Virus record (IMG/VR): IMGVR_UViG_3300022552_000002 | Coordinates: 1 to 64,000 of that record | From: a virus | Length of the DNA: 64,000 bases | Direction: 5' to 3' (one strand) | Part shown: piece after piece, positions 882-48,275 of the stretch | How positions within the stretch are numbered: position 1 is the stretch's first letter | Layout: each line of letters opens with the position of its first letter | Made by a program: the position numbers and the translations under genes | The notes under the pieces: model-generated | Seen by the model: the letters and a program-made list of their open reading frames with translations, nothing else | The model's database searches: none | Told to the model about the DNA's origin: nothing

Positions 882-908
882 GGTTTCTCCTTTGATAATG
901 GTTTTAAC

Positions 909-1775: not shown

Positions 1776-1942
1776 GGTTTTCTCTCCTGAAGATAGCTAT
1801 TAAAACATTCAAACCATTCTTTCATGGTGCGATTGTTTAGATCTTTATCTTTATTAGCAGCCATCATAATCTTGTGTTCCATCATTTGCTCAAAGTCTCT
1901 TACAACCTGGTGCAGATCGAGCACAAATTCAGTTAGTTTCAT
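1772..1942 (-). CDS. small hypothetical protein (56 aa), not in ORF track
   Basis: MKLTEFVLDLHQ...QERKP; ATGA overlaps at both ends fill the gap exactly. Confidence 0.65.
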   Translation of the reverse strand: MKLTEFVLDLHQVVRDFEQMMEHKIMMAANKDKDLNNRTMKEWFECFNSYLQERKP

Positions 1943-2238
1943 GTTGTTTGCCTTTCTAATAGATGCGAAAGCCTGTCTCTTCTGACAGCGAGATCTTCTT
2001 TATCTTTTCTCCATCTCATTTGTATGTCGTCTATTAATCTATTTTGTAGACTTTTGTTTCTTTTGAAGTTATTTGACCATGGCCAACACATACCGAATTC
2101 AGGATATTTATCTTCGAATTCTCTAGCACATGTATTACATCCATGTTCAAGATAAGATCCTTTAGTTCCATATCCAAACATTGGACTATGATCGCCTTGA
2201 TTAATGCTACCTTTGCATCTTGAATTATTGCATGGCAT
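1939..2238 (-). CDS. hypothetical Cys-containing protein
   Basis: TAATG coupling to helicase stop. Confidence 0.65.
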   Translation of the reverse strand: MPCNNSRCKGSINQGDHSPMFGYGTKGSYLEHGCNTCAREFEDKYPEFGMCWPWSNNFKRNKSLQNRLIDDIQMRWRKDKEDLAVRRDRLSHLLERQTT

Positions 2239-4919
2239 TATGCGGTCTCCTTATCAAACATTGAGTTAAGAACATCACCAGAAATATCACCTACGTCAGC
2301 GGCAGAACCATCAACAATTTTATTAATGATCTTCATTTTGTGAGCAATGATTGCAGCCATCTTCCCATCAATGCTATTTTCCATATCAAGATATTCGATC
2401 ATTACATTGTTCCTCTGATTTATTCTCCAGAGTCGGTCTTCCATTTGCACCATATCAGCTGGACGCCAAGTACGTTCAACTACCTTCATGTTCTGACAAA
2501 CTTGAAGTCCATCTGTTCCTGTTCCAGCTGCCATGATGGAAGCTAAGAAAACACGAGCTTCTTTTGCTACGAATTTATCAATAGCATCTTGTCTTTTAGA
2601 TGAGTTATCACCACCTCTGATAGTAACAATAGAGTGTCCAGCTTTCTTAATAGATTCTTCTAGTCTATTAACCACATCTTTGTGATGTGCAAAGATAGTT
2701 AATTGTTCGTCTTCATTGCTTTCGAACCAATCATTGAAATATTCAATAAGAGAATTGATTTTAGAAAGAGCACAAAGGCGCTTCAATGTAGTAAGTTTGG
2801 TGATAGCTTCAGCTGCTTGTGCTTTGTTAAGTTTTTCTATACCACCTTCTTCAAATGCCCACTTAAAGAAATCTTTAACTGCCAAATCATATTCTGCTCT
2901 ATCTTCTTTCTTAATATCGAGCGTAGTTCTGAAAACTAGTTTTTCGGGTAGATCTTTAAGTACATCTTTCTTTTTACGACGAATCATATATTGACCAACC
3001 ACTCTACGATGTAGTTCATCAAGATTAGACGCACCATCGAACTTTTTGATAGTAATGAAAGTATCTTTGACTCGATTATAGATCTGTTTCTCTTCTGGAT
3101 TACAATATTTGTAACCGAATGTAGTAAACTTTGGCCACTTCTGAGGGTCACAGATATGAAGTTGGTGCCAAAGCTCTCTTGGTCTGTTAAGAACTGGAGT
3201 ACCAGTCATGAGAATTCTTCTAGGAATATTCTTGGCAATTTCTCGAGCTGCAATTGAACGACCTGATTTAGATTCTTTAACGTAATGAGATTCATCTAAA
3301 ATCATAGTACGAAAACCATAGTATCTGAAGAAGTTTTTATGACGCTTTAGCAGATCGTAGTTTGTAATAACAATATCTGGTTGATAAGTAGAAAGTTTTT
3401 CGATACTGTGTTTTGTCTTTTCTTTATTGCCGTTCTTATTAATTTTGTAGAAAAAGCCACCTTCAATTACTACGCAGTTAATGTCGTTATTAATCCATTC
3501 TATAATTTTCCTACCCCAATTAAGTTTAACATTAGCTGGACAAACAATGAGACTTGGTTGTCTTCTGTAATCACGATCAATAAAAGCTAGTGCTTGAACA
3601 GTTTTACCACAGTTATGTACAATAATTCCATTAGCAATAAAATTTCTATATGGATCTTCCATTACAATATCATAGACTCTTCTCTCACCAATATTTCTGA
3701 TACTAACTACTCTATCTTCTTTTGGAAGGAATGTAATTTTACCACCAGTACCGGCGGTTCCACCATGCATATTAAGATGTTTATTGTGCAAAATATGATG
3801 TTCAGAACAAGAAGTTAGTTGAAGATTTTCTATTCTATTATCATGTCTTATCTCATTTTTATGGTGAATTTGTTCTGGCCATTCAATATATCTTCCAAGA
3901 TGTTTTTCCATTACAAGTATGTGTTCAAAAACAATACCATTATTGAATTCTCTTGGATGATCAAAATTACCAGAGACACGAATGTATCCGTCCTTATCGA
4001 TAAATTTTCCACCTTTGAATGTTGGTTTCTTTCTCAGATACCTATAAATACATTGTTTACAATATCCTCTATACTTTGAATATTTATACGTTGTTATATT
4101 TTCTGTACCACTACATCTTTTGCAAACAATTTTTCCATTAACAAGAATTTTCTTATTCAATGAGTTTGCTGCTTCAATTTCTTTACCATTCTTTTTAAAC
4201 AATTCATGGTCAGGAGTGAGTCTTAATTTTTTTCTAGATTTAGTTGTGATTTCGATTACATGTTTTTTACCTTGATAGATAACTTTTTTAATTCTATTGA
4301 GTGTGAGTTCGTTATCGGTGAGAGATTTAGTGTAAGTTGGAATATCTGTGTTCCATCTGCCTTCGATTCCATTAAACTTTTTATACAAATCCCTTAGTTT
4401 TATTTTAGAAGCTTTACCAGCTCTGTTAATAGCAATGATTGCATTACCACTAATACAACCCATATCGTCACCAATAATAATGCCACCATTGATAGCAATT
4501 TTCAGTTCAAGGAAGCGCACACCAGCGCTTTGGAACGGATAAAGCGCACCACCATGAATACTGATTTCATCTTCCTCAGAGACAGTAGTGGCTGTAGAAA
4601 ACTTATTCTGCTTCTTAACTCGGTTGACTAGATTAAGAATGGTCTCGTCAAATTCTGCTGTTGGATAATGTTCAATCACAACACCAATAGCTGCCTCGAC
4701 GAAATCATTCTTAACCCACCAACAACGTTTTTTCTTATCCCACCCTTTGTTCCATCCAAATACAGCTGCTTTCAAACTGTCATTAAACGCACCATTGTAC
4801 TTTGGTGTGTAGATATCAATTCCTTCATTAGTTGCTTTGACTTTCGTAACTGACACTTTTGGCGTGGGTTGTTTTCTAACAACACTTCTTTCTGGAATTA
4901 TCATTTCAATTTGCTTCAA
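2238..4919 (-). CDS. SNF2/SMARCAL1(HARP)-like helicase interrupted by an intein
   Basis: LYPFQ Q-motif, DDMG/CGKT Walker A after splicing, IVCPA, DESH, MTGTP, QMEDRLWRINQ motif VI; N-terminal HARP-like segment. Confidence 0.9.
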   Translation of the reverse strand: MKQIEMIIPERSVVRKQPTPKVSVTKVKATNEGIDIYTPKYNGAFNDSLKAAVFGWNKGWDKKKRCWWVKNDFVEAAIGVVIEHYPTAEFDETILNLVNRVKKQNKFSTATTVSEEDEISIHGGALYPFQSAGVRFLELKIAINGGIIIGDDMGCISGNAIIAINRAGKASKIKLRDLYKKFNGIEGRWNTDIPTYTKSLTDNELTLNRIKKVIYQGKKHVIEITTKSRKKLRLTPDHELFKKNGKEIEAANSLNKKILVNGKIVCKRCSGTENITTYKYSKYRGYCKQCIYRYLRKKPTFKGGKFIDKDGYIRVSGNFDHPREFNNGIVFEHILVMEKHLGRYIEWPEQIHHKNEIRHDNRIENLQLTSCSEHHILHNKHLNMHGGTAGTGGKITFLPKEDRVVSIRNIGERRVYDIVMEDPYRNFIANGIIVHNCGKTVQALAFIDRDYRRQPSLIVCPANVKLNWGRKIIEWINNDINCVVIEGGFFYKINKNGNKEKTKHSIEKLSTYQPDIVITNYDLLKRHKNFFRYYGFRTMILDESHYVKESKSGRSIAAREIAKNIPRRILMTGTPVLNRPRELWHQLHICDPQKWPKFTTFGYKYCNPEEKQIYNRVKDTFITIKKFDGASNLDELHRRVVGQYMIRRKKKDVLKDLPEKLVFRTTLDIKKEDRAEYDLAVKDFFKWAFEEGGIEKLNKAQAAEAITKLTTLKRLCALSKINSLIEYFNDWFESNEDEQLTIFAHHKDVVNRLEESIKKAGHSIVTIRGGDNSSKRQDAIDKFVAKEARVFLASIMAAGTGTDGLQVCQNMKVVERTWRPADMVQMEDRLWRINQRNNVMIEYLDMENSIDGKMAAIIAHKMKIINKIVDGSAADVGDISGDVLNSMFDKETA
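3612..4457 (-). mobile_element. intein (282 aa) carrying an HNH homing endonuclease
   Basis: starts CISGNA, block B LTPDH, ends VYDI...NFIANGIIVHN followed by Cys+1; internal EHILVMEKHLGR...HHKNEIRHDNRIENL. Confidence 0.92.
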
Positions 4920-4928
4920 TTTTGTTTC

Positions 4929-5381
4929 CTAAGCAGACTTTGCAACAATCTCATTGTAAACTTCAAGCTCCAACTCTTCAGAAAGAAGCTTCGCATTGAG
5001 ACGAACAACCTCGGTCTTCGGGAGCTTACTAATCACTTCCCTCTTCATGCGATTCACAAGAGACTCCATCTCATCAAACGACATTCCGATCATTTCCGCA
5101 ATGTCGTCTTGACCCATCACCATTGAAACCTTGATGGCTTCCTCCATAGCAAACAAGATGTTCTCTCTCTGAATGCCGCTCTTGTGGAGAGCAATTGCTA
5201 GACACTTCAACCATGGAATAGAGGTAGTTGAAGCCTTCTCGCTTGTCTTCTTGTTGAGCTTACCAAAAATACGAACAATCATGTCAATATTGTACTCTCC
5301 ATCAGAGATGTCGTTCTTTGCTTCCTTCTCTTCCTTGCTGGAGATGGCCTTTGACAGAGCGAGAGTGTTGATTGAGTTCAT
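4929..5381 (-). CDS. hypothetical protein, paralog of 33489..34013
   Basis: shared LAL.K, D.IVR..G.L.K and T.SIPWL...A.....SG motifs; GGAGG RBS. Confidence 0.8.
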   Translation of the reverse strand: MNSINTLALSKAISSKEEKEAKNDISDGEYNIDMIVRIFGKLNKKTSEKASTTSIPWLKCLAIALHKSGIQRENILFAMEEAIKVSMVMGQDDIAEMIGMSFDEMESLVNRMKREVISKLPKTEVVRLNAKLLSEELELEVYNEIVAKSA

Positions 5382-5518
5382 CTTTTCCTCCGATTTTTGT
5401 TGGCTTTTGGATTACAATAAATATGCATAAAGTTTTGCATATAACATGGGTATTGTCAATCGTTGAATATACATATAATAATGTCTAATGTTTATCAACA
5501 GTTGATTGAAAACTACAG

Positions 5519-7078
5519 TTATGTCAGATACTTAACTCCACAGTGAATACACAGATTGCCTTCAATGGTGTGTTGTCCTCCACAGTGCGAACACACTTCA
5601 AAAGTCTCTTCAATGTATGTTCTGGCTTCTTCTTCGGTATCGAACACACACCAATCAGTACAATCCATATAGCCAGGAGCAGAGAGTCGAGCACCGTAAC
5701 CTTCAACAATTTTTGATTCGTAGAAGGTTCTGTTGCGTGTCATCTCCAGCATTTTTGTTGCCAACTTATTGTTGGTATTTTCAGCAGCAATTTCTGCCAT
5801 CATCATTTTGATTTCTTCTTTTCCCCACAAATCTAGAGGAAGCCATTCAGTTCCTTCTGGACCGTCGATCTCTACCCATTTCTGTTTAACGATTTGTGGA
5901 ATCATGTGTGGCATTATAGCTCCTTAAACAATGGGCCATTGTCTGGTTCGAATGGATTTTGAAAACAACAATCAAAATAACCAAGTACCATGTTTTGTAT
6001 TGCTATTCCCAAATCAAAATCACTAATGAACTCTGATATGTCACAGACATAATGATGTTCATTGATAGAATAGAAAGTTCTGCCATGTTGGTACTCTGTG
6101 TAGATAATCACGTCTTTGAGATTATGCATTAGTCTTCCTCCTTTATAGGAACACCATCGATACCATATCTAACTTTTTCAACACCATCATATTCAATTTC
6201 GTATGAAACTAAATCATAAAGCTCATACCATTCAGAGTAACAATTGATGCAATAGATTTCCTGCCATGCTGTTGCATCTTCGATGTGGACAGGGCCACCT
6301 TCAATATCAGTATTGTTACACACAGGGCAACGACTGCTATTTTTCAAATGTTCTTTGTTAGTTTTCATTGTTCCTCCATACCTTCGATAACAGACGCCAA
6401 CCAAGGAGCAGCGTACTCATTGAACAAGTAGTCATGTCGTCTGCTTGGAAATCTTGAAGGCATTGCGTTCTCTTCGAAGCGATTCTGTTCTGCTTTGATT
6501 AGTTTGACAGCAACAGGATCGACATCTTCGCCACCTTCATATTTCCAATCCTCTTTGTCGAGCAGTCCAATCATCACAAAGCCGATTTCAAGTCGTAGTT
6601 CTTCCTTCAACTTCTTGAATCGCTCTTCATAGTTAATATTTGCCATTGCTTTCTTGCGTGCAGTATCAGCAATGTAATTGCCGACGTGTTCTGCTGAACG
6701 CATAGCAGACTTGGCTCGCTCAATCATTTGCTTTTTGGAAACAATGAAAGAGATGCGATCTCGAATGTAAGTTTCAAGATCACCATAAACATGAGTCAAG
6801 TGACCGAGGATTTCTGCGGCATTCATATGATCGCTTTTGTACTTCATAGTTCTAGAGATGTTCAGAAAGGCATCCCATTTACCGTTCATTCGCCCCCATG
6901 TACAGCTGTTACACTGCGCATTTTCAGGCAAATCGTTGAAGAAAAGTTCCAAGTGAGAGGCAGCTTGGTAAGCATCACAATCTTCCTCGAAAGTGAGAAT
7001 AGCAGTGATGATTGCCTTGTGTTCACCTCGCTTGTGGTGATTGTCACACATGATATTGACATTGATATCAGTCTTCAT
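5519..7078 (-). other. four early-type hypothetical CDS (5519-5914, 5914-6129, 6129-6368, 6365-7078)
   Basis: overlapping stop/start codons and RBSs; 5519 has an RLSAPGYMDCTDW motif typical of phage early proteins. Confidence 0.7.
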
Positions 7079-7596
7079 CGTTGCTCCTTGTTTCTTAGAA
7101 AGTTAAAGTTGTTAGGTTGTTTACTCATAATAGCTTCGATTTTATCAAGACTAAATGGATAGAAGTTATTGTTATCTACTCCAATGTCCCATTGCTTACC
7201 TATAGGCGGTAATCCGCCATGTGAGTGACCAAATAATTGCCAACTATTGTAATGAGATTTGTGCCATACTCTGCCTGCATAGTGACATACAACTATAGGT
7301 TGTCCATTTAATGTCTTTGTCCATACTTCATGATAAGACCCACCCATCCAACTATCATGACTACCACGTAATAGAACATGGTTTCCATTCAATTTTCGCA
7401 GAATAGCTTCTGCGTCTTTCTTGTTGCCGAAACAGAAATCACCAGCATGAATTGTTATATCTTGTGGTGTTACAATTTCATTGTGTCGTTTAATAATTTG
7501 AGCATTCATTTCTTCAACAGAAGAAAACGGTCTATTGGTGTATTCTATAATTTTAGCGTGACTGTAATGTTCATCTGCTGTAAAGAAGTATCCCAT
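7075..7596 (-). CDS. calcineurin-like metallophosphoesterase
   Basis: ADEHYSH, HAGDF, RGSHD, CHY, FGHSH, DIGVD motifs. Confidence 0.9.
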   Translation of the reverse strand: MGYFFTADEHYSHAKIIEYTNRPFSSVEEMNAQIIKRHNEIVTPQDITIHAGDFCFGNKKDAEAILRKLNGNHVLLRGSHDSWMGGSYHEVWTKTLNGQPIVVCHYAGRVWHKSHYNSWQLFGHSHGGLPPIGKQWDIGVDNNNFYPFSLDKIEAIMSKQPNNFNFLRNKEQR

Positions 7597-10433
7597 TTAC
7601 CTCTCCTATTGAGATCTTGGGTGTCCGCATTCAAGAAAATCTGGATTACTATTAAGAACGTTCGTCCATTTGTCGCATTCATAGCAAAATGCAATTGACA
7701 ATTGGAGAACTAACACATCAGCATACTCAGAACCACAACGGTAACTGCAAAAATGACTGTTGTTTCGAGCTGCCCTATTGCCACAGTGAAGGCAAAGGGG
7801 TTTACTCCTCTTTCTGCCTGCCATTACTTTTTAATTTTAGAATCAAAGTTAGCAGCATGTTCAATTGTTCGTTCTATACTCTTGATCATTCCAGCAATCT
7901 CTTTCATGTTGTCAGAATCCAGATCAACAAGAGACTGTTTAACAACAGACTGAATTGTACTTTTAAGATTGGGGAAATGACCTAAAGTTATTTCCCTTTC
8001 TTTCCCAATATTTTCGGCTTTAGCCTTTCTTCCTCTTGTGCTTTTTCCTGTGATAATCTTCTTTCTTTTAAGAACAAAATTATATCCATCTTCGATTTCA
8101 ATAAAGAGTTTTTTGGTTATTTCAATCTTTGCCATTAGACGCTCCTTCTTTTCAACTTTGTACAATGACATATTTGTGTATACTCTCCATATTGAACGCC
8201 CCACCAATGGCCAATTTCATCATTGCCAAACCAAACATCTTCTCTGGTTCCAGCAATATTATGAGAGCCATTACTTGAAGCATAGCAATTGAGCTTCAAC
8301 GATCCAGGCCAATTACTTACTACGCGAGGATGTTTTTCTGTATTCAGATAGAGATGAACACGATCTCCTGGCTTTGCGTCTTCCATTCTCTGAAGATCTA
8401 GTTTGCCACAGCAGTCGTAACAAATTGTTTCACCAGCAACATTCTTACCATAACCTGTACCAACACCACTTGTGCTAATGGGTTTTGTTTTCTTACAAAT
8501 TGGACATTCAAATGCTTTGACTTTTTTCATTTTACCTCCTAAATCCAGTTTCCGTGGCAGTATTCAATAGCTTCATACTCATCTTCAAATTCTCCAATGT
8601 CAACCGTTTCCATACGATCAACAGAAGAACAATGCATATAGATAGAATCTTGATCTGTATCTGAATCATTAATTCCATCATACATTTCTTCTCGTTCATC
8701 TTCGTTTAGTTCTATATCCCAATCAGACTGAGTATGAACGAAAAGAAGTTCATATGAAGGTGTTAACTCACAACAATGAGTTGCTTCATTTGGATTAAAC
8801 ACATATACGCCTACCATTTCAGTGATGCCGAATTTTTCACGGAATTTTTCGTTCCAATGCCGTGTTTCATCTATCTTCACTGCTTTGAACTCAGGCATTT
8901 GTTTCTCCTAGTAACGATTGTGAGTTTTTTCACCACTTGGGTCGTGGGTTTCTATAAGAATATATTTGAAATCATCAAACGAAATCTTGTTCAATATCTT
9001 ACCATCAAACCAGAAGTAGTAATTGTCTTCACCATCAGTCTCGAAGTGCTGAATATATCCAAACAGACTCTTGGTATTCATTCGAGGATCGAGTAGGTTG
9101 GTTCCTAATTCTCTCAGAATCCAACCGAAGACAGTCGGTGCATCTTTCTCTTGTAGTCTGTTAAAGTCATGCACTACAAGATCTGTATCGAACCTTGTTG
9201 GTCGCATATACTTCACGGACATTCTTTTCATTTGGTCAAAAGGATTAGCCATTGTTGTCTCCTATAAACCTGCTTTTTCGTGTGGTATACAAGTACAATC
9301 TTCTATTGTTTCTTCACATAAAGAGCATTTATTTACTATTCTTCTCCATTATCTCTTTGGAATTGCGAATTCATTCTTCTTTCATGTTCTTCTTCCATTA
9401 TTTCTCTTTCTAATTCCGACATCATGTGATCATCATAATATTCTCTTTGTCTTTGTTCCTCTTCCTCTTCAGCTTTTAATAGTTCATCTTCTTCCATTTC
9501 GTCTGCAACGAATTGAAGCATCTTAGAATTCATCTTAGCCATTGTTGCCTCGATTCTTTGTAGCTTCAATCAGTTTTTGTGTCAGTTCTTCTTCATCTTC
9601 TTTTTTAATTTCAGGATCAAGATAACCAAGCGCATATAAAGCTATTTTACAAGAATCTTCAGAAGGGTAAGCGCCTTGATCGTCATTATTCTCTAACTCT
9701 GTTTGATCATTATCCCAGAGCCAGGAGAAAACGTCTGCACACCAATCAACATCGCTGTCGATTAGATCGTCGCGAACAAAGTTGTGTGCAATTTGAGAAA
9801 TATTTTCAACAGCAGCTTCGTACTCTCTGTTTGAGTAATCACTGTCATCGAGTACAGGATATTCTTCGAGAGCCATTTTCAATTCACAGACTTTCTTTAC
9901 TGCGTCTGTGACATTTCCATCCTCATCTACGACTCGAACAGAATATCCATCGATCCATCCACATCCCCAATGGTTGTGGCTTTCAGAGTGTGCGGTTCCG
10001 TCTTCAACAAACGGTTCCATTTCCTTATCAAACACAGATGCGTTTGAAAGATCGAGGATACCGGAGTCTCGATTGTGGGTGTAGAAGATACCCCAATTCT
10101 CAGGGTCTTCAATACCCATTCTCCAATGAGACCAGCCGAAGCTTTCAAACTTCTGCCAATTACCCTTGAACTCTTTCACGAAATCATCGAGATGATCTTC
10201 AAAGTGCATTATCTTTCTCCTCTATCATCATATGTGTGAATACTTGCGAATGGAATGTTGTATTCTCTTAGGTGTTCTAGAATAGTATCAGCATATACAT
10301 TGTGACAAAAAATTCTGGCTTTTCCGTATTTGAAAATTATTGCATAATCAGTATTTGGTTTAATGCTATGTTCTTCTCTTAAATGAGACTGCATTTGTAT
10401 CAATGGTATTTTAACGTCTGTCATTTTGTCTCC

Positions 10434-10493
10434 TTTCGTGAATCCATCACTCCCACATTTCCGTAGAAATAGGGAGTACAAAGAGCCACGAAA
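10434..10493 (-). promoter_or_regulatory. long imperfect intergenic RNA hairpin abutting an RBS
   Basis: TTTCGTG/CACGAAA, ACTCCC/GGGAGT, ATTTC/GAAAT nested stems; 3' arm runs into AAAGGAG. Confidence 0.55.
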
Positions 10494-12238
10494 TCAAGCA
10501 TACTACAGGAGAGATTTCAAGCGCTTCAGAAAATCTTCCTTTCCTTCTCGTTCGTCCATTCCGTAGTGGCCTTCACCGAAGCCATTGCATTCATGGTTGA
10601 AGTACCATGTGATATGTTCTATACCACCTTCAATGTGTTCGGCTTTACGTTTAAAGAGAACAACACTCAGAATAGGATTGCGAATACATCGACAGCTTGT
10701 GACAAGCTGCGCTCCGACGTTCTTTGTTGGCATATGATGTTCGCTCATCATTACTCCTCTGGATAGAGACAAAAAGCTTCAGCAATTTGTTCTGCTAATC
10801 CATATCCGAAAGTCCGACGTGCGCCGTCGAACCAATCAAGATAATGGTAAGAACCACCAGTCCAATCTTTTCCTTCAGGATCCCAGTCAAGACAAATGTA
10901 GTCTTGTGGGCCACCATAGGAAAGCTCAATTTTGAATTGAACTGTCTTAGAAATAGCAAGCGGCAACTCTGAAAGCCGCTCCTGATGAAATTCTCGAATG
11001 AAGTCTAGGATTTCTGTTTCGTAGTTTTCCCAGACCCACTCATCGAAATCAGAGTCAAGTTGATCGTCTTGACTTCGTTTCAAGCCATTAGCTTTTTCTT
11101 CATCAGTCAAAGGATCATCAGTATCAGAATACTCAGGAAAAGAATCTTCACACGATTCAACCCATTCATCGAGAAGAACATCGTGTTTCATTCCTGTAGC
11201 ATCCTTGTAAAAATCATTAATGACACTGCTTTGATAAGCAGCATAACAATCAAAACAATCTTGAAGACTCTCAAGATCAGGAAGAATCTGATCCATCCTT
11301 GATGCCTGATGAGACTCAACAAGCTCTTCGCAGCTTAGCTCTTTCTTTTGATTCTCAGCCATTACTTACCTCCCTAGATGCTTGATGTTTTCGAGAATAT
11401 GCCACTTGATTTTTTCTTCATCGCCTTCATTTAATGCTTCAATGAAATTCCTCATTTCATCTGAAACATGATAAATCTTCTGTTTTCTATTTTTAAAGTA
11501 CGGTTTAATTTGAGATACATGACCAGCACGCGCCATATTCTCGAGAACACGATAAGCTCTTGAATAAACTTCGTTTGCTCTTGACCAATCAGGAAGATTA
11601 TTCATTGTTTCTCCTTATGCTGTAATGAATCCAAGTTCTTTAAGTTTCTTTCTTGTAACTACTTTCCAGGAATTTATTTCATCAACTCGTTTCTTATATG
11701 CTTGTCTAGCTTGTTTCTTTGTTCCGAATTTTTCGTCTCTATCATACCCACAATCATCAGCTCCCCAAACGCATGTTCTAATTGCTGGATAGCCCCATAT
11801 TTTTGTACATAGTATCACTTTCACTCTAACCGTATCATTTGGATAATTAGGATAAAATTGATCTGTTGTAGGTAGATATATTTCGTGTTCAAGATATTGT
11901 TCGTGTTTATAGATTTTCATTTGTCGCTCCTTACAGATCTTTCATGATCTCATATATCTTTTCGTAATCTGATTCGTTGATTTTGTTATCTCTTACTAAT
12001 TTGTATAGTTCGTATTTTATTCTTTCAACCATTTCTCCTATTTCTTTTAGCTTTTTAAATGTTTCCCTTGAATGTTCAATAGAATGCTTACACCATGAGT
12101 CAGTTTCAGACAGAAAACCACGAGCACCATCTGTAATTTCATCTTTTGGTATTGGATCTGGATACATATGCAATGATGATTGTGCGTCTATTAATTCATT
12201 CATTGCAGATAGAATCATTTGTTTACTCATATCTTCTC

Positions 12239-12296
12239 CTTTGTTAACTCACAGAATCCCTTGATCTGTATCAAGAGAAACTGTTAGGCAACAAAG
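12239..12296 (-). promoter_or_regulatory. long imperfect intergenic RNA hairpin abutting an RBS
   Basis: CTTTGTT/AACAAAG outer stem, TCTCTTGAT/ATCAAGGGA inner stem; 3' arm overlaps AAAGGAG. Confidence 0.6.
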
Positions 12297-13416
12297 CTTT
12301 ACTTAGCCCAATCTGGCCAAGGATTGTCACCACAACGAACTGAAACGCCAAACTTATATCCTTCGATATAAGCAGGAGCAAGATCTTCTCTATTGTCTTC
12401 CATTTTACTACTGTTCATACCTGCCATGAATCCCATTGTGTATGGCAAAGGATCGTCAGAAGGAACAGAGGATGGTCCACCAATAGGATGCATCCTGAAT
12501 TGTCCCGCATTAAATTTGGTTTCCATTCCTCTCATTTTGTCCATTAGATCATCGGACATTCCGTGCATCTTTCCGATGATACGTGCATCATCTTTTCCTT
12601 CTGAAATACCGCGAAGCATTCCACTTCTGAAATCGCCCTGCATAAACTCTCTGGCCGTTGAACCAAGAGCATTAACAGGGCGATTCATTCTTTCTTCATG
12701 TGATTCTAGATCATCAAGCTCATATGAGAGCTTTCGTGCTTCACGAAACATCTTATGCCAATTATTTCCACTCCAATCTTCAATTGGAGCTTTACATCCA
12801 TAAGAATGAAGCATCTCCACTTGATACTCTGGATTGTCTTGATCCATTCCTTCCCAGCCACATGATCGCATAGCATCTTCAATATTCTTTTCAGAGACCA
12901 TATCAAGATCGATCTCTGAAAGATCAACAAGATAGTTACATTCAAAATCGTTGTAATCGTGAACGTCATTCATTTCGATCATATGATAGCGGTGATAAGC
13001 TACCTTTCGCAGCCATCGACCACCATCATCGAGATAGATTTCTTTGAATTTTCCCATTACAGTTCCTCCACATCCATAGTGTCGAGAATACCAGAGCGTA
13101 GACTCCAAGCATGATCGATCAAATCATAATCCATTCCAAATCCTTCGTGAAGTCTACGAAGGAGGACAAGCATATCCTTTGGGGAAACGTCACAGGTTAA
13201 ACGATAACCGTCATCACTAAAAGACGATTCAGTAAAAGCTTCAAGATATGCATCGATTCCTTGATTGACTACATGAATCATTACATCTCTGTCTTCTCCA
13301 ACAAGAGACATATTATAGTTTCCGTGCTCTTCAAAGATTTCTTTCAGTCTTTCGATTGGTGTTTCACCAGAGCTGTAAGTTTCCATGTTTGCCTCCTTAG
13401 TTGTTTTCTTAATAAT

Positions 13417-13470
13417 CCCATAGAGACTCCAAATAAGTTTAGAATCTCTATGGGGCTATCAAAGCCCCAT
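13417..13470 (-). promoter_or_regulatory. overlapping hairpin pair (8-bp and 17-bp stems)
   Basis: AUGGGGCU/AGCCCCAU overlaps CCCAUAGAGAUUCUAAA/UUUGGAGUCUCUAUGGG; both irregular positions are G-U pairs on the minus strand only. Confidence 0.7.
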
Positions 13471-13476
13471 TATTTT

Positions 13477-13491
13477 CTACCACCAGCGCAT
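13477..13491 (-). CDS. putative leader peptide/minigene MRWW
   Basis: AGGAGG, 5-nt spacer, ATG CGC TGG TGG TAG. Confidence 0.4.
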   Translation of the reverse strand: MRWW

Positions 13492-13562
13492 ATCATCCTC
13501 CTAGTTAGTGGTTAACGATACAAATCAAATCAAGTTGCACCTCCTTTGTTGGAGACAAAACA

Positions 13563-13871
13563 TTACATCCTCTTTTCCATATCATCCATGAACTCTCGGA
13601 AATTGACAAGGTTAATACCAACATCCAAAGCATAACTCTGGATCTCAGTAAAATCCCATTTCTCATTGCCAAGAAAGCGCCAACGACGTGTGTCAATCAC
13701 GCCATTAGCTACATTGAGAACCCAGACAAGTTGATTGCCTGAATATGAGATAAAAAGAAAAACCTCATCAGGTTCAATTGGCCGGAACATTTGTTCGGCT
13801 TCTAGGTAATTCCTTACCTCAGAACACCGAAAGTCAGCGGTAGCAACAAAAGAAAGTTTGAAGTCAGGCAT
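13563..13871 (-). CDS. hypothetical protein, possibly IS66 Orf2(TnpB)-like fold
   Basis: ADFR...PDEVFLFISYSGNQLVWV...RRWR pattern; GGAG RBS before ATG 13871. Confidence 0.4.
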   Translation of the reverse strand: MPDFKLSFVATADFRCSEVRNYLEAEQMFRPIEPDEVFLFISYSGNQLVWVLNVANGVIDTRRWRFLGNEKWDFTEIQSYALDVGINLVNFREFMDDMEKRM

Positions 13872-14172
13872 TGTTCTTCTCCAACCAGTCTGTGATTTGC
13901 ATATAGGCATTATGAAAGTTATCATCCGATCCACCACACAGCGAATCGATCTTAGAAGCAAAAAGAACAGAAACAGGGTGAGTATTAACCCAATCTGTTC
14001 CCTTATTCAAAGATGTAGCAATATCCCAAAGCTCTGTCATGACCTTTGAGAATGAATGAATTACACCAGAAAGGTTAGAAGCATTTTGAACATCTAATGC
14101 TGTCTGACAAATGTTTCTCAGCTTTTCCTTGTCTTCTTCGTCTAATGACTTGAATTGTTGCTCAACCAACAT
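13864..14172 (-). CDS. hypothetical protein
   Basis: AGGAG RBS; ALDVQNASNLSGV...NTHPV motif. Confidence 0.7.
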   Translation of the reverse strand: MLVEQQFKSLDEEDKEKLRNICQTALDVQNASNLSGVIHSFSKVMTELWDIATSLNKGTDWVNTHPVSVLFASKIDSLCGGSDDNFHNAYMQITDWLEKNNA

Positions 14173-14323
14173 TTTTTCTCCTATCTATCTCAGATTGAAT
14201 TTTACGCAGAGTCGTAACATTGTTACTCTGCGTTCGAATATTCTTTGCAATTTCCTGACGCAACAGTTTGCGCCATTCAATTAATTCTTCTCTTGGAAGA
14301 TTCGTGATAAGATTGTTAGACAT
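14162..14323 (-). CDS. small hypothetical protein (53 aa), not in ORF track
   Basis: AGGAG RBS, MSNNLITNLPREEL..., overlaps next start. Confidence 0.6.
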   Translation of the reverse strand: MSNNLITNLPREELIEWRKLLRQEIAKNIRTQSNNVTTLRKIQSEIDRRKNVG

Positions 14324-14340
14324 TACTTCTACTCCTGTTC

Positions 14341-14400
14341 AAAAACCCGACAAAGTAATCTAAGAAAAAAACCTAGATTACTTTGCGGGGCTTTCGCCCC
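14341..14400 (-). terminator. intrinsic terminator-like long hairpin with an overlapping upstream GAAA hairpin
   Basis: GGGGC-GAAA-GCCCC overlapping CCCG-CAAAGUAAUCUAGG/CUUAGAUUACUUUG-U-CGGG, then UUUUU. Confidence 0.7.
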
Positions 14401-14406
14401 TTTTAA

Positions 14407-14763
14407 CTAAATAGTGGTTTCGTCAGCGATCTGTCCTACCATCTTGTACATTGTATCTCTCAGTTCCATGAGGTTTCCACCAGCGGCCTTGAGGATATAT
14501 TCCCCTTCCTCATTCCGCTGATAGTGCTTTTGAGCGCTCAGAAGCATCTTGAGGACAGCAGCGCGCAGAAAATCGTAGTCGTCTGGACCGAAACTCTGCT
14601 GCTTCTCCTTCATTCCGCGCAGAAACTTCAGCTTGAATGCCTTCCACAGAACACTGTGAAGCCATGGATCACATTCCTTGAATGAGAGAATGATCTTACC
14701 GTCTTCCTCGATTCGAAGGTAGAAACGCGGAGTCATTCGGTTATTGTTTGGATTCTCACTCAT
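14407..14763 (-). CDS. hypothetical protein (GC-richer than neighbours)
   Basis: AGGAGG RBS; followed by terminator-like structure. Confidence 0.75.
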   Translation of the reverse strand: MSENPNNNRMTPRFYLRIEEDGKIILSFKECDPWLHSVLWKAFKLKFLRGMKEKQQSFGPDDYDFLRAAVLKMLLSAQKHYQRNEEGEYILKAAGGNLMELRDTMYKMVGQIADETTI

Positions 14764-14864
14764 TTTCGATTCCTCCTACTTTTCCTAAGTTTCTTGGCTT
14801 GATATCTAGCCAAGTAAAAAGCCCGATCTCTTTGACCGAGCCGCTTCAAATCTTCCATTTTCAT
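14760..14864 (-). CDS. 34-aa basic microprotein
   Basis: MKMEDLKRLGQRDRAFYLARYQAKKLRKSRRNRK; ATGA overlaps at both ends. Confidence 0.5.
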   Translation of the reverse strand: MKMEDLKRLGQRDRAFYLARYQAKKLRKSRRNRK

Positions 14865-14935
14865 CCTCCAATAATCAGGTAAAAGATTGTTCCTGTAATG
14901 AACCAGGAAACGAAGGTAAAAGGAAGTGCATTCAT
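14861..14935 (-). CDS. 24-aa single-TM microprotein
   Basis: MNALPFTFVSWFITGTIFYLIIGG; fills gap, AAGG RBS. Confidence 0.5.
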   Translation of the reverse strand: MNALPFTFVSWFITGTIFYLIIGG

Positions 14936-14938
14936 TAT

Positions 14939-15340
14939 TTACCTTTCATAGCGTTTGCGCATTTTGGTAATTACTTCCAAAGGAACGCCGTGAGTATTTC
15001 TAGTGGTCAATTCTTTGTCAGAGAAAAGACCGTCAAAGAGATCGATTATTTTGAATTCATAACCCATTGCCTTTACAATACTCAGATATACGGAATATTC
15101 CCATCTTTGAGTATTGGTATTATCTACTACAATAACAGGGATATTATCAATCATTGCATCTATGACTTTACACATATTTTCGTTGTGTGCTTGTCCAATC
15201 AACCAAGGTCTAAAATCATAGTGTCCATTAACCATGAAGAAATCATCGGTCGAGAAGATTGGTGCGTCAGGATACATTTGCTTGGCTTTAGTGGATTTTC
15301 CACTTCCAGGCAAACCACGCATAATAACAAGTTTCTTCAT
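14939..15340 (-). CDS. P-loop polynucleotide kinase-like protein (AAA_33 / N4BP2-like)
   Basis: MRGLPGSGKST, STDDF, VVDNTN, RNTHGVP. Confidence 0.85.
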   Translation of the reverse strand: MKKLVIMRGLPGSGKSTKAKQMYPDAPIFSTDDFFMVNGHYDFRPWLIGQAHNENMCKVIDAMIDNIPVIVVDNTNTQRWEYSVYLSIVKAMGYEFKIIDLFDGLFSDKELTTRNTHGVPLEVITKMRKRYER

Positions 15341-16399
15341 TTCAACTCCCAATCGTTAACTACAATCCAAGCGTTGTTTTTATTCAACTTCTTTTGCCGC
15401 AATTCCTTGTTAGTCAACTTTCTACGAAAACCACAAGAAATTCCATCTAAATCAAAAAGCTGAAACACCTTGGATTTTCCCACTCTAAAAGGTGTTTCCA
15501 TTGTTCGATAGATTCCGTTGTTTAATTCAAGTGTCATCTTTCAGTCTCCGATTCTATACGCAAAGTAACTCCAATTTCTTTCAACAAATCTTTTCCTGTT
15601 AAGAATTCATCTGCGTCTATATCAAAAACAATGATTGGATCTATAAATGAATGACCACAATTAACTTTTTCAGAACCAAAAACATTCATAGCAGCATAAG
15701 CCGCTGAGAGTGTAGCTGGTTCAACTCTAGCTCTAATGATCTTTTTCAGTTTGATAGTCATTAGTTGTCCTTTTTATTCCCTATTCCTTCTTCAATAATA
15801 TTCACAATAACATTTGCAATCTTTTTATCACTCTCTACACAATTAAAAACAACACCTACATGTTTCATTTCGCCAATGAAAGTAGTAACAGTAACGTTGG
15901 TTTGATAGTTGTTCCTTCTATCAAAAAACCCTATATCTATTCTGTGACAGATCTCAAAGATACGAATAGAATATCTTACTTCCAAACCATTATGTAGATA
16001 AACTTTTTGATATCCATGCTCTCTAAGTAGACCAATAACATTACCAATGATAGTGTTAAATCTACGTCTGTTGAACAATTGGAATTTCATCTAACCTTCT
16101 CTTTCAATTGTGCAATAGTGAGTAACAGAAAGAACATCACCCACAATATTGAAAGTAATCTCTCCCTCTACTCTCAGGTAGTCCGTATCAGCGTCTTTAT
16201 TGTAATCCAGGATATAATGAGTAGAAGTTTCCTGTTCTTCGATTGAGCCCCATTCTATGAAGTTATGGAGTCCTATCGCAGCACAACATTCTGCAACATT
16301 CTCTGTATGATGCATTTCAGTAGAAATAGGCTTTCCACTTCGTATGTCAAGAATCATAGGAAATGTCAGTTTATGAAACATCGTTTTCCTTTTTAGCCA

Positions 16400-16487
16400 G
16401 TATGCATCATCTTATGCATACTCCGTTTTATTTCCCTGGCTACACTACGTGTAGCAAGTCAGAAATTATGCATCATCTTATGCATAA
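16400..16487. promoter_or_regulatory. two tandem TTATGCATAA-type box pairs flanking the palindrome GCTACAC-TAC-GTGTAGC
   Basis: pairs at 16400-16421 and 16466-16487, each two 10-mers with a 2-bp spacer; palindrome at 16439-16455. Confidence 0.7.
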
Positions 16488-17107
16488 CGATTTCATCAAT
16501 GTTTTTCAGTCTTTGTTTCTCAATTAGAATCATAAGCTGTATTATGACTCTAATAAAGCTACAGAGAACTATTCCCACTCAAATTTAACAGAGGAGAAAT
16601 TGGACAGAGTGATTCTTTCCAGCTCTCCATTATCATCGTAGAAGGTAGCGATCGTTCTAGTACCCATTCTATCTTTCTCTTCTTGAACGATATTCAACAA
16701 TTCATTCTGTGTATCAGCTTCAAGAATGAATTCATCAGAAGTACCAGAATCAAAGATAGCTTTCACAATCTTCTCCTTAGTAAACAACGTTACCGTTGAC
16801 ACTAACACCACAACGCATATCACGATCCATTCTATCGAACATATCGTTATTCTCTTCCTTGATTACAGAGGCTTCAGTAATAGCCTCTTTCTCTGTACCC
16901 AGGAAATGGAACATGCGGATAAACTGAGAGCCATATGAAAGCTCCCGTCTATATCCGTTGTACCAGACTTCTATCACTTGCTTCATATTAACTGTTCCTA
17001 GTGTCTGTTATCTGTTCTGTTCTATGTTGTTCAATTAATAACTTACTTTGTTCGATATATTCGCGTATTACAAATCTAATGTAGTGTGCGATAGAATATT
17101 CAAATAC

Positions 17108-17172
17108 AAGTAAACTAACTATTCCCAGGTACACTGTAATAAAAGTAAACTAACTATTCCCAGGTACACTGT
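17108..17172. repeat. 30-bp perfect direct repeat, 35-bp period
   Basis: AAGTAAACTAACTATTCCCAGGTACACTGT at 17108 and 17143. Confidence 0.95.
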
Positions 17173-17996
17173 CTATAGTGAATGGGGGGCTGTATACCTG
17201 CTTTCTACCCACGATAAAGCCCCTTCAAAGGATCTTAGGGTTTATCTACCATATGATCAGATCCAGTCCCCCTTCATAGCAAATTCCATAGCATCGAATT
17301 CCTTGATCTTCTTTATCCGCTTTTTCCTAGGATTCTTTTGTGGCTTTGGTTCACAGATCTCAGAAGGATACTGTGATTCATTTAACGCGATGAATCGAGC
17401 CGCACTATCAGAGGTAAGAAATTCTTCCTTACCATAAGACTTCATAACCAGATATCCGTGATTCGTTTCCTCTACTGTACCCTGTCGCATTTCATCCCTG
17501 ATAACTGCATTATCACCGTTATGCATATTATGTTGCATAACATCGGGACACAAACGAGAGAAATCTTTTGAAGCTGTCATAGTTTTACCCTACTCTCAAG
17601 GAAACTGTACCAATACCTGTATTACAGGTAACAGTCTTAGGTTCTGATATGGCTTCCGCTTTCATACGAATTCTGGCTCCAGCCATCTTCATACAGTTAT
17701 TCAAAACAAATGTAGGATTTTCCTCGTTTTGATATTCCATATTATCGTGCAATTTAATATCGTGTTCTTTTGCAAAGGACATAAGCAGATCGATTATCTC
17801 GAACATACAGTCAGTTGAATAGACAATATTTTTTATTTCTACGATAAGAGAATTAGTTTTCATATTCTGTGGTTTGTATATAGGGGAATTCTCTACAGCC
17901 ATTATCTGTTGAATATGAGAATGCAAATAGTCGTCAAAGTCAAAATCTGGGGATTTTCCAGATTGCTTTAGCTCTTTATCTGTCTTATGTCCGATC

Positions 17997-18018
17997 TTAT
18001 GCATAATATTATGCATAA
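17997..18018. promoter_or_regulatory. tandem palindrome box TTATGCATAA-TA-TTATGCATAA
   Basis: perfect copy of the recurrent motif. Confidence 0.75.
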
Positions 18019-18067
18019 CCTTTCTATCCCTGGTCAAAACAGGGAAAACAAAGCCTCTATAATAGGG

Positions 18068-18103
18068 AAAACCCCCCGGACCACAAAAGATCCGGGGGGT
18101 TTT
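18068..18103. terminator. bidirectional intrinsic terminator
   Basis: AAAACCCCCCGGA-N10-TCCGGGGGGTTTT just downstream of 18126..18500. Confidence 0.85.
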
Positions 18104-18125
18104 GAGAGGTAGGGCTAGCTAGATT

Positions 18126-18500
18126 CTAGTCGCTGGGGACGGTCGCGACCGTTTGCGATCCGCGCTTTCCCTCACTCTTCGCGGCAACCTCAGTCTCCCA
18201 GCGATCATGATCGATCATCGGGACGGCCGTAGCGGCGACGTGCGAAGCGAAAGCCTCAACTAGCTGGCGCGCCTTGTCGCTGTACTCACCCACGGTTAGG
18301 CCATTGTTCTTTGCGAACGTGCGAAGCTTGGAGAGATCGGACTCGATCTTCCGCGCTAGGGTATCGAGAGGGCAGACCACAAAGGAGCCAGATGCGTCCG
18401 CGTAAGGAACGATCATGGAAAGGGGAGGTAGATCAGCCTTTGCCTTAGGCGCGATCTCCTCGATCATGGTGGAAAGGCTAGAAAGCTTGATTTTCTTCAT
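18126..18500 (-). CDS. first left-arm gene, hypothetical 124 aa, GC-rich, probably monocistronic
   Basis: MKKIKLSSLS...; GAGG RBS; bounded by a sigma54-like promoter and a terminator. Confidence 0.75.
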   Translation of the reverse strand: MKKIKLSSLSTMIEEIAPKAKADLPPLSMIVPYADASGSFVVCPLDTLARKIESDLSKLRTFAKNNGLTVGEYSDKARQLVEAFASHVAATAVPMIDHDRWETEVAAKSEGKRGSQTVATVPSD

Positions 18501-18578
18501 CGTAAAAACCTCAATCTCAGGTTTGATTTTTTCTATTGCTTGAATCCCTGAGAAAACCCACGCAACACCGCTATTGAT

Positions 18579-18594
18579 TGCAACTAATGCGCCA
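18579..18594 (-). promoter_or_regulatory. sigma54 (-24/-12) promoter-like site
   Basis: TGGCGC-ATTAG-TTGCA vs consensus TGGCAC-N5-TTGCW; about 80 bp upstream of ATG 18500. Confidence 0.7.
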
Positions 18595-18706
18595 AAAGTT
18601 AACTTATTGTTATCATTAGGTTTGACATAGTGACAGAGCCCCAAAACTGGCTTATATAAACCAATAGTGATAACTCTAAGCATCACCATACATTTAAACC
18701 TAATGA

Positions 18707-18719
18707 AATCAACATGTTG
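18707..18719 (+). promoter_or_regulatory. IHF consensus site
   Basis: AATCAA-CATG-TTG matches WATCAA-N4-TTR; a one-mismatch site also at 18600-18612 (-). Confidence 0.45.
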
Positions 18720-18829
18720 AATCCCTCAGAAAACTGAGAGTCTAACCTCAGAAAACTGTTACATAACTTATCATGACAAAATGGCAATACTATGGTAATA
18801 GAGCCATAGTATAGGGTACAGATACCACG

Positions 18830-18851
18830 TTATGCATAATCTTATGCATAA
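18830..18851. promoter_or_regulatory. tandem palindrome box TTATGCATAA-TC-TTATGCATAA
   Basis: perfect copy; overlaps the -12 element of the sigma54-like site at 18845. Confidence 0.75.
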
Positions 18852-19009
18852 GACGTACCAGAACAAATGTTATGCAATGATTATACCAATGAATACAACG
18901 AAAACATATGCAATAAACAAGCCAATTAGTTAAGGGGATTCCTTAGCAAGAAATAGGCCAAGTTTTATGGGGGGTAGGGCGTTGAAAAACACATGCAATG
19001 TTTATACCA
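18845..19009 (-). promoter_or_regulatory. array of five sigma54 promoter-like sites
   Basis: TGGTACGTCTTATGCA (18845), TGGTATAATCATTGCA (18873), TGGCTTGTTTATTGCA (18909), TGGCCTATTTCTTGCT (18945), TGGTATAAACATTGCA (18994); all GG-N10-GC. Confidence 0.7.
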
Positions 19010-19075
19010 TAAAAAATAATGGACGGATGTTACTGTTGGCACGATAATTGTTAATCCAGGTGCCCACCCAAATCG

Positions 19076-19158
19076 CCCCCAATTTTTAAAATTCCCCCAA
19101 TTTTTAAAATTCCCCCAATTTTTAAAATTCCCCCAATTTTTAAAATTCCCCCAATTTT
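19076..19158. repeat. 18-bp tandem repeat, 4 perfect + 1 partial
   Basis: CCCCCAATTTTTAAAATT units at 19076, 19094, 19112, 19130; partial at 19148. Confidence 0.95.
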
Positions 19159-19323
19159 CAACATCCGTAATTTCCTCATCTTTAATTCCTCTATTTTCCT
19201 ACTAAACATCTCCAACAATATCCACGAGTTTTGAATATATCCATTGTTATGCATAAGCCTTCTAAAAAATTCCGCCCATAATTTTCAACTATCCAGTATT
19301 TTCTTTGTTATTTTTTTGGCCCC

Positions 19324-19335
19324 TTGTAGTATATA
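19324..19335 (+). promoter_or_regulatory. phage promoter motif TTGTAGTATATA
   Basis: recurs upstream of genes at 30460, 35303, 38891 (+) and 48228-48239 (-). Confidence 0.65.
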
Positions 19336-19358
19336 TAATATACAGAAAGGCATGTAAT

Positions 19359-19898
19359 ATGTGGTCTGAACTAAAAACAGTTAGATATAATTCTCCTGAA
19401 GAAATAGCTAACTTCTGGTGTAGACCTGATGAAGAAGGTAAGGTAGATGGTTTTTTAAAAAGAGTAACTGTTCCTGAGTTTATTCAAGAAATATATGTAA
19501 ATGGTATTTGGGGATTTTTTCACATAGAAACAGGAGAAATACATTATTGGTGTTCAAATGAAACCTCGTTAGGAAGTGCTATACGATTTTTTGGTCATGA
19601 ACTCGGACATCTTTTAGGTATTCAAGATGGCACATATTACGAGAATGAGTTTGAAGCAGAGAAGTTTGCTAATGCTGCATATTTTGCTGCAAAACTAGCA
19701 TATGAAGCTGTTGATGTTTTGAGTTGCAAACGACTTGGAGCATCAATAAAAACCAAAACAAAAAAACCAGTTATCTTATTTGCTGCTATTGAAGAAGAAC
19801 AAGATGATAGAATAGTCAAGATGAGTATAGAAGAAGGTAAAACTTCTGGTGAAATTATTCGAGAAGCTATTAAATTATATTTGTCTAGGAAGAAATAA
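19359..19898 (+). CDS. HExxH metallopeptidase (ImmA/IrrE-like) fused to a C-terminal ribbon-helix-helix domain
   Basis: FFGHELGH...EFEAEKFA; C-term ILFAAIEEEQDDRIVKMSIEEGKTSGEIIREAIKLYL; AAAGG RBS before ATG 19359. Confidence 0.6.
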   Translation: MWSELKTVRYNSPEEIANFWCRPDEEGKVDGFLKRVTVPEFIQEIYVNGIWGFFHIETGEIHYWCSNETSLGSAIRFFGHELGHLLGIQDGTYYENEFEAEKFANAAYFAAKLAYEAVDVLSCKRLGASIKTKTKKPVILFAAIEEEQDDRIVKMSIEEGKTSGEIIREAIKLYLSRKK

Positions 19899-19990: not shown

Positions 19991-20126
19991 AAAGTTCCTA
20001 CAATTTCCACTTTTATCCACAGAATCTAAGGTAATTTTCTGTACTCACTATTCCGACTCCCCAAAAAATTCCACCCATATTTTTGAAATCTCAGCTTTTT
20101 CTGTATGAACAGAGTATATATAGATT

Positions 20127-30459: not shown

Positions 30460-30488
30460 TGTAGTATATACAAACAAAGGAGACAGAT

Positions 30489-35298: not shown

Positions 35299-35318
35299 AC
35301 TTTTGTAGTATATATAGT

Positions 35319-48227: not shown

Positions 48228-48275
48228 TATATACTACAAACCTACCTTGCGATGAGTTCTTTTTTCATATAGAAT
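48228..48275. promoter_or_regulatory. back-to-back promoters: phage motif (-) and sigma70-like (+)
   Basis: TTGTAGTATATA on minus at 48228-48239; TTGCGA-17bp-TAGAAT on plus at 48247-48275. Confidence 0.6.

Follow-up and report, generated by a model that had tools for sequence, protein, structure and literature searches.

Sigma-54-type boxes at the early strand switch of an uncultured marine phage and in the control regions of its relatives

Early transcription in phages is, in textbook terms, driven by the housekeeping sigma factor or by a phage polymerase. A cluster of -24/-12-like sites in the control region of an uncultured phage raises the question of whether the host sigma-54 (RpoN) could be involved, and whether such sites would serve as promoters or as something else. 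The sequence-only reading of this DNA had offered both an early program started from sigma-54 promoters and a decoy or loading array. The window analyzed here is the first 64 kb of an IMG/VR record (G000; 109,973 bp, 38% GC, estimated 76% complete) from a marine phage with a genome of about 110-150 kb. Minus-strand genes, among them those of an HNH-containing helicase and of a PNK-like ATPase, occupy the left arm from 172 to 18500, while the plus-strand arm begins at 19359 and continues into the terminase and virion genes. The strand switch between them (18504-19358) is an 855-bp gene-free region that contains the box cluster. It is flanked by the following features:

18126 to 18500, minus strand: first leftward gene, a 124-aa orphan of about 53-60% GC against 38% for the genome
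18068 to 18103: strong terminator hairpin after the first leftward gene, which has its own terminator and is monocistronic
19359 to 19898, plus strand: first rightward gene, with a HExxH-type N-terminal part and a C-terminal ribbon-helix-helix (RHH_1, E 9e-6)

DNA identical to that of the window phage is carried by marine, sediment, and hydrothermal-vent metagenomes. The control region shows zero variation across contigs from four DNA runs (sediment, two hydrothermal-vent metagenomes, and a possible source run of the window itself), the phage was found in no RNA run, and a 149-kb contig carries the first leftward gene in identical copy. The DNA search against isolated phages gave no match, nor did alignment A1 against metagenome contigs or the Rfam search, and no IMG/VR relatives of the neighbour proteins were found. 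The first leftward gene has a sole homologue among 5.8 billion clusters, a 168-aa ENA protein (63% identity) on a 1.4-kb contig. Searches in Pfam, PHROG, PADLOC, and Atlas gave no lead for it, and its AlphaFold model, at pLDDT 59, was not good enough to search for similar folds. The gene has the look of a moron of recent acquisition, sitting immediately beneath the control region. The product of the first rightward gene is a candidate operator-binding regulator. As a separate observation, the 893-aa helicase (2238-4919, minus strand) has its HNH endonuclease segment at about residues 260-385, N-terminal to the helicase core, and the matches of the relatives described below span the core alone (about 455 aa).

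The earlier description of the locus listed six minus-strand 16-mers fitting TGGY-N7-WTGCW, five of them within 165 bp, all facing the left arm, and a near-match on the plus strand at 19037. We recovered each of them in place and letter for letter, including the grouping of five in 165 bp, and all six are co-oriented with the leftward genes. The scores below, in bits, are those of the matrix (PWM) presented further on.

18994 to 19009, minus strand: U1, TGGTATAAACATTGCA, 14.9 bits; predicted sigma-54 start at about 18983
18945 to 18960, minus strand: U2, TGGCCTATTTCTTGCT, 14.0 bits; lacks A at -22; predicted start at about 18934
18909 to 18924, minus strand: U3, TGGCTTGTTTATTGCA, 13.2 bits; lacks A at -22; predicted start at about 18898
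18873 to 18888, minus strand: U4, TGGTATAATCATTGCA, 15.6 bits; predicted sigma-54 start at about 18862
18845 to 18860, minus strand: U5, TGGTACGTCTTATGCA, 12.6 bits; predicted start at about 18834
18579 to 18594, minus strand: U6, TGGCGCATTAGTTGCA, the proximal box; predicted start at about 18568
19037 to 19052, plus strand: R1, TGGCACGATAATTGTT, whose -24 half is perfect and whose -12 position has GT for GC

The GG-N10-GC spacing holds for the six minus-strand boxes and not for R1, which belongs to the 12-mer TGTTGGCACGAT (19034-19045). The five packed boxes are spaced by 28-49 bp, and the predicted U6 start lies about 68 nt from the ATG (18500) of the first leftward gene.

The claim that this cluster is far beyond chance was upheld, with six boxes seen against 0.08 expected in the shuffled intergenic region. 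In 5000 dinucleotide shuffles of the 855 bp, the richer strand had a mean of 0.08 boxes and none reached three; genome-wide, the maximum per 200 bp is five, compared with one or two in 200 shuffles. Over the whole window the pattern occurs 16 times (4.2 expected), and the ten matches outside the cluster are all in coding regions and on the coding strand. Seven GG-N10-GC 16-mers occur in the region, six of them on the minus strand, and T-26 together with T-14 is found in all these six, against 19% genome-wide. Positions that the pattern does not impose are also shared, since Y-21 (position 6) and R-20 (position 7) are found in 6/6 boxes. W-11 is present in all six, and the -12 half is TTGC, the sigma-54 form, in five of the six, as opposed to the TATGC of the operator described below. 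Some boxes are close kin (U1 and U4 are identical at 16/17 positions, U2 and U3 at 12/16), and as these pairs are copies the independent events are fewer than six.

A scan of IMG/VR for triple boxes returned at least 117 loci, where the majority of matches are coding repeats. Among the matches listed, seven loci have non-coding clusters with TGGYAYG-N4-TTGCW features beyond those that the pattern demanded:

L004, L015, L022, L109: tandem arrays, non-coding, IMG/VR
L003, L083, L113: face-to-face arrays, non-coding, IMG/VR

As in the window, several boxes of one orientation lie together in a control region devoid of genes, and in L015 the boxes also lie at a strand switch and point toward the left arm. 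Their boxes are near-consensus (median 22 bits), whereas those of the window score 7-9 bits lower and are intermingled with -10 and operator signals. No bEBP (bacterial enhancer-binding protein) or sigma-54 domains were found in the records of L004, L015, L022, L109, and L003, one of which is complete. The literature searched gave no account of sigma-54 boxes clustered in the control regions of phages. The predicted boxes of the window are a weaker and more entangled example, yet one that adds conservation in a lineage and the absence of an activator in complete genomes.

We built the PWM from 48 boxes of these non-coding arrays in seven other viral contigs. Its training set (minimum 15.3, median 22.2 bits) is therefore made of viral arrays and includes no validated bacterial promoters; a supplement of PMC12316311 gives activator protein motifs and no promoter PSSM. 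Scoring the 110 kb places six of the ten best matches in 18845-19052, and R1 is the top match genome-wide (18.2 bits) despite its GT at -12. However, U1-U5 score 12.6-15.6 bits on this viral-array PWM, against the minimum of 15.3 and the median of 22.2 of the array boxes, and U6 is not among the best 30 matches (the lowest of which has 8.5 bits). A at -22 is present in 3/6 window boxes, compared with 93% in the canonical arrays. Hence the whole-genome check singled out the cluster, but with scores under those of canonical arrays: the window boxes are weak by sigma-54 standards.

The same DNA carries other signals. U4 is also a perfect extended -10 (TGGTATAAT), the sole intergenic perfect TGnTATAAT in the 110-kb record, and U1 is another with one mismatch (TGgTATAAA, TGGTATAAA). 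U2, U3, U5, and U6 do not fit TGnTATAAT, and a simple sigma-70 scan found a -35/-10 pair at none of the boxes. Three further elements lie in the control region:

18830 to 18851: TTATGCATAA palindrome pair with a 12-bp period, read as an operator
19076 to 19158: tandem repeats CCCCCAATTTTTAAAATT, 18 bp in 4.6 copies, each copy with the palindrome AATTTTtAAAATT
18601 to 18618: block AACTTATTGTTATCATTA, 17/18 identical to a block of the control region of the relative G006

The -12 half of U5 comes from this TTATGCATAA pair, which also extends over the predicted starts of U4 and U5. Other TTATGCATAA sites in the window are 12-bp pairs at 17997 and 19969 and a single one at 19247. A pattern search for the operator gave 0 viral matches and 53 metagenome matches, none related to the window phage. 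Beyond the window, a single perfect TTATGCATAA box and a 12-bp pair of them, three in all, lie at 103,025-103,132 of the record, at a 413-bp non-coding gap (102,676-103,088) and just past its right edge (103,111 and 103,123); this gap is a second control region with the same TTATGCATAA operator. The CCCCCAATTTTTAAAATT repeats directly downstream of R1 lie between -93 and -175 relative to the predicted start of U1 and between +13 and +95 relative to that of R1; the block is a candidate enhancer, iteron, or operator.

An IHF consensus had been reported at 18707 between the boxes. It is present, within the palindrome TCAACATGTTGA, but IHF sites are not enriched (five in the window where 7.9 would be expected). 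Further repeats crowd the leader: the AACTTATTGTTATCATTA block (18601-18623) has an inverted partner at 18696-18718, TTGAATCCCTSAGAAAAC occurs twice (18540-18557 and 18717-18734), and so does CCTCAGAAAACTG (18724-18736 and 18746-18758). These repeats are probably sites of additional regulators. They also make both strands fold unusually well (leader RNA folding z of -4.5 for minus and -3.6 for plus; -7.2 and -7.7 in G006). Both strands score, the fold signal stems from DNA palindromes, and it does not speak for an RNA element in the leader. DnaA boxes show no enrichment overall. The sole perfect DnaA-box 9-mer of the window (TTATCCACA, 20013-20021) is 30 bp away from the 19969 operator pair, amid ATCCAC/ACTCAC-type repeats (19211, 19912, 19996).

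Relatives were found by a terminase search. Two of them, G006 (142.9 kb, 45% GC, 59% terminase identity) and G007 (147.7 kb, 56.5% GC, 54%), have complete genomes that end in terminal repeats; in common with the window phage they have the structural module and the helicase, and few early genes. The search for the same clustering at the matching position was positive in both, as sigma-54-type boxes were found in their non-coding control regions. In G006, the best four PWM matches genome-wide lie within 790 bp of a non-coding region of about 1.6 kb, about 11 kb from the helicase:

114283, plus strand: TGGTATAATACTTGCT, among the best four PWM matches of G006
114619, minus strand: TGGCACGATACTTGCT, 22.7 bits
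114972, minus strand: TGGCACGATTATTGCT, 18.8 bits
115056, plus strand: TGGCACGATTCTCGCA, among the best four PWM matches of G006, with an iteron block just downstream

Two of the G006 boxes are canonical, TGGCACGAT-N3-TTGCT, and the sole TTATGCATAA box of that genome (114350) is inside this control region. The non-coding region 2560-3650 of G007 has TGGCACGATATTGGCA (15.9 bits) pointing toward the helicase arm, two weaker minus-strand boxes (11.0 and 8.5 bits), and a TATGCAT pair.

The control regions do not align, and the genomes range over 38, 45, and about 56% GC, but they do have some blocks in common. The window (R1) and G006 at 115056 (plus strand) share TGTTGGCACGAT at 12/12 positions, on the same strand relative to the iterons. 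The TTGGTATAAT..TTGC of U4 recurs in G006 at 114283, where a module is kept in which ACATTTGTT and a TTATGCATAA box lie downstream of TTGGTATAAT. G007 has TTGGCACGATA of the R1 block at 2705 (plus strand), and further common blocks are TTATGCATAAG and, at 17/18, AACTTATTGTTATYATTA. As a specificity control, TGGCACGATNNTTGCW (at most one mismatch) had 0 matches in 25 other terminase-related records, and a scan for conserved 18-mers gave nothing beyond identical copies of G006. U6 was not found in G006. The tandem array itself is not kept in G006 or G007, which carry three to four dispersed boxes, and in G008 (39% terminase identity) PWM matches occur in coding regions only. Taken from these comparisons, the predicted sigma-54-type boxes are a conserved feature of the control region of this lineage over a wide range of GC, and the tight five-box array of such predicted sites is specific to the window phage. 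The iterons that follow TGTTGGCACGAT are in the same place in the window and in G006, with unrelated repeat sequences, as would be expected of iterons or of a lineage-specific binding protein; the repeat block could be an origin. In G006 it consists of GTGAGCTAAT-type units (115,146-115,257, or L202 7147-7258; about 21 bp, 5.5 copies) after the TGTTGGCACGAT box.

The window had been said to lack a visible bEBP, and this extends to the rest of the record (76% complete) and to G006 and G007. The bEBP AAA+ domain (PF00158) had no match in G000, G006, G007, or five other array-bearing records. The record, G006, and G007 also have no match to the sigma-54 DNA-binding domain, sigma-70 region 2, or a T7-type RNAP, and lacking the latter two the phage must use the host polymerase. 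The sole region-4-like match in the record, a weak one, is the probable small terminase. Concerning the host, visible start sites have strong GGAGG-type Shine-Dalgarno sequences, and among isolated phages the closest terminase is that of Brevibacillus phage Emery (33% identity). All seven GTDB prophage relatives by terminase (32-34% identity) are in Bacillota, in genomes that encode sigma-54. These remote genomes are compatible with an rpoN-bearing host, as a weak proxy. In G038 (a Pelosinus MAG) and G042 (Brevibacillus massiliensis), several contigs carry open frames of about 980-1060 aa besides the normal rpoN; their match to the Sigma54_DBD model is confined to its final ~60 positions (the HTH/RpoN-box part).

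The simplest reading that covers both the window and its relatives is that the host sigma-54 holoenzyme recognises the boxes, which we regard as reasonably probable. The phage lineage would thus probably borrow host sigma-54, and the boxes are most likely weak tandem promoters or docking sites for it, mixed with sigma-70-type and operator signals. We tentatively favour the promoter form, i.e., weak tandem promoters of the leftward unit which depend on a host activator and would be read by the host sigma-54 (RpoN) RNA polymerase. The holoenzyme would dock on the boxes as a closed complex. Because the phage and its complete relatives encode no AAA+ activator, an enhancer-binding protein of the host would have to open it, with the 18-bp palindromic repeats (between -93 and -175 relative to the U1 start) as a candidate enhancer, and leftward early transcription would be conditional on the state of the host. 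Five weak tandem boxes would offset the low affinity of each. Since extended -10 elements coincide with U1 and U4, the housekeeping sigma would be a competitor of sigma-54 at these sites, and repression encoded by the phage would come on top through the TTATGCATAA operator pair that lies across U5 and the start sites.

The promoter reading is in line with boxes that point at downstream genes, with an operator placed over start sites, with the dispersed canonical boxes of the relatives, and with the promoter-like distance of U6. From the original proposal of sigma-54 promoters, the non-random co-oriented cluster stands and is backed by boxes kept in relatives, but scores are weak, -10 and operator signals overlap the boxes, and the enrichment of IHF is missing. 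Other points speak against sigma-54. U1 and U4 are fully explained as an extended -10 followed by a CA start, in a module kept in G006; R1, the best-conserved box, is without the near-invariant C at -12; the hint at Bacillota rests on 32-34% terminase identity. There is also no recognisable enhancer common to U6 and the array.

These points lead to a composite explanation without sigma-54, which we find doubtful. Here, U1 and U4 would be strong extended -10 early promoters of the housekeeping sigma, U5 an operator, and U2, U3, and U6 sites of a DNA-binding protein of the phage lineage or drifted copies, so that the likeness to sigma-54 promoters would be partly coincidence. It accounts well for the uniqueness of U4 as an intergenic TGnTATAAT and for the near-perfect U1, for the TTGGTATAAT/ACATTTGTT/TTATGCATAA module of G006, for the operator over U5, and for the low PWM scores and the missing A-22 in half of the boxes; Bacillota, the group hinted at, typically use extended -10 promoters. 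However, it leaves unexplained why TGG is exactly 10 bp from TTGC in each of the six, why TTGC follows TGGTATAAT at equal spacing in U1, U4, and G006, and why G006 has canonical TGGCACGAT-N3-TTGCT boxes with no -10 reading, and the sigma-70 scan gave it no -35/-10 pair at any box. Another view is that of a drifting remnant, duplicated pieces of one ancestral promoter/operator unit which are now functionless or have an unrelated role, for example in replication or packaging. The pairwise kinship of the copies, the fast turnover of early regions in the lineage (few early genes in common with G006 or G007), and the lack of U6 in G006 would fit. Yet the TGG and TTGC positions are kept though spacers differ, and box blocks are among the very few strings kept between non-aligning control regions, which makes this view improbable.

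If sigma-54 is retained, its binding may still be silent, with the holoenzyme or free sigma-54 sitting on the DNA and not transcribing. Such a docking array could occlude the overlapping -10 promoters or stop read-through where the strands switch; it could also mark or structure the adjacent block that resembles iterons or an origin, or titrate sigma-54. An activator is encoded neither in the record nor in the two complete relatives, and the spacing of 28-49 bp is near or below the footprint of a sigma-54 holoenzyme. Moreover, R1 and its G006 counterpart face iterons and no obvious gene, and the face-to-face boxes of L003, L083, and L113 cannot both fire. Stable closed complexes and widespread non-transcribing sites of sigma-54 are established (PMC4591121, PMC5095919). 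On the other hand, each of the six boxes has the orientation of the genes that follow it, the three to four boxes of the relatives are dispersed and form no packed array, and an operator over start sites suggests the regulation of real transcription; weak boxes also make a poor sponge. We thus consider silent docking unlikely. The decoy or sponge proposed at the outset is disfavoured for its weak, gene-facing sites and for the dispersed boxes of the relatives. A sponge calls for many high-affinity sites of any orientation, whereas these boxes are sub-consensus and all co-oriented, and a strict sigma-54 sponge is unlikely because they are weak. In the literature searched, no family of sigma-factor decoy or sponge arrays is established.

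How would host sigma-54 promoters in this phage compare with known systems? Sigma-54 needs a bEBP and forms a stable closed complex (PMC5095919, PMC7057263). Bacterial sigma-54 promoters (glnAp2, pspA; TGGCACG-N4-TTGCW) resemble the window in the GG-N10-GC spacing, T-26, T-14, and W-11, in their position upstream of genes, and in the possible repeat block at enhancer distance. They differ in that the window has no cognate bEBP or defined enhancer that we could find and lacks A-22 in half of the boxes, and five boxes 28-49 bp apart are an arrangement not known in bacteria. E. coli has silent and intragenic sigma-54 sites (PMC4591121). As in the docking reading of the window, these are -24/-12 sites occupied by the holoenzyme without transcription (PMC4591121), but they are single and scattered in genes, whereas the window boxes are clustered in a phage control region. 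Among phages, Pseudomonas phage YuA uses host sigma-54 promoters (Ceyssens 2008, PMC2238194, as reported in PMC10914365). According to that account, YuA is like the window phage in having no RNA polymerase or activator of its own and -24/-12 promoters for host sigma-54, and its promoters are single, experimentally confirmed, and located in the late/structural region of a 58-kb phage. The window shows instead a packed tandem cluster of weaker predicted boxes at an early strand switch, in an unrelated phage of about 110-150 kb. Another parallel lies with the tandem early promoters of T7 (A1-A3) and T5, which are stacked at the head of the early unit and capture the host polymerase; these are housekeeping-sigma promoters placed about 100 bp or more apart. 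The window boxes are likewise stacked at the head of an early unit, but the housekeeping reading is available for U1 and U4 only.

In the sources consulted, YuA is the one phage with a documented use of sigma-54, and there for late genes only. As the sigma-54 polymerase needs an ATP-driven activator that senses the state of the cell, boxes in phages without an activator would imply either host-gated infection or a roadblock of silent complexes. If true, the outcome of infection would be gated by host physiology, or the closed complex would be exploited as a DNA-bound roadblock, and either would be a new regulatory principle. To what a single array can tell, the window adds the persistence of boxes in related phages across 38-56% GC. 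A bolder joint reading, which we put forward as speculative and rather unlikely, is that large marine phages without activators wire the decision point of their early program to host sigma-54. The holoenzyme would either start transcription whenever the host has an active stress or nutrient activator, or sit silent and shut housekeeping promoters. The phages would use for this the TGTTGGCACGAT block beside the iterons and multiplied weak boxes over early -10 promoters. The control region would then be a sigma-competition switch that senses host physiology, and one case of a widespread, undescribed class of arrays.

Finally, the window contains a motif of another kind. The 10-mer GTAGTATATA occurs four times (19326-19337, 30461-30472, 35305-35316, and 48228-48237 on the minus strand), where about 0.2 copies are expected from sequence length. 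Every copy is just 5' of a gene start, and at 48.2 kb, where the strands switch ahead of the terminase genes, one pair stands back-to-back. It is a candidate phage-specific promoter motif, perhaps middle or late, unlike the sigma-54 boxes.
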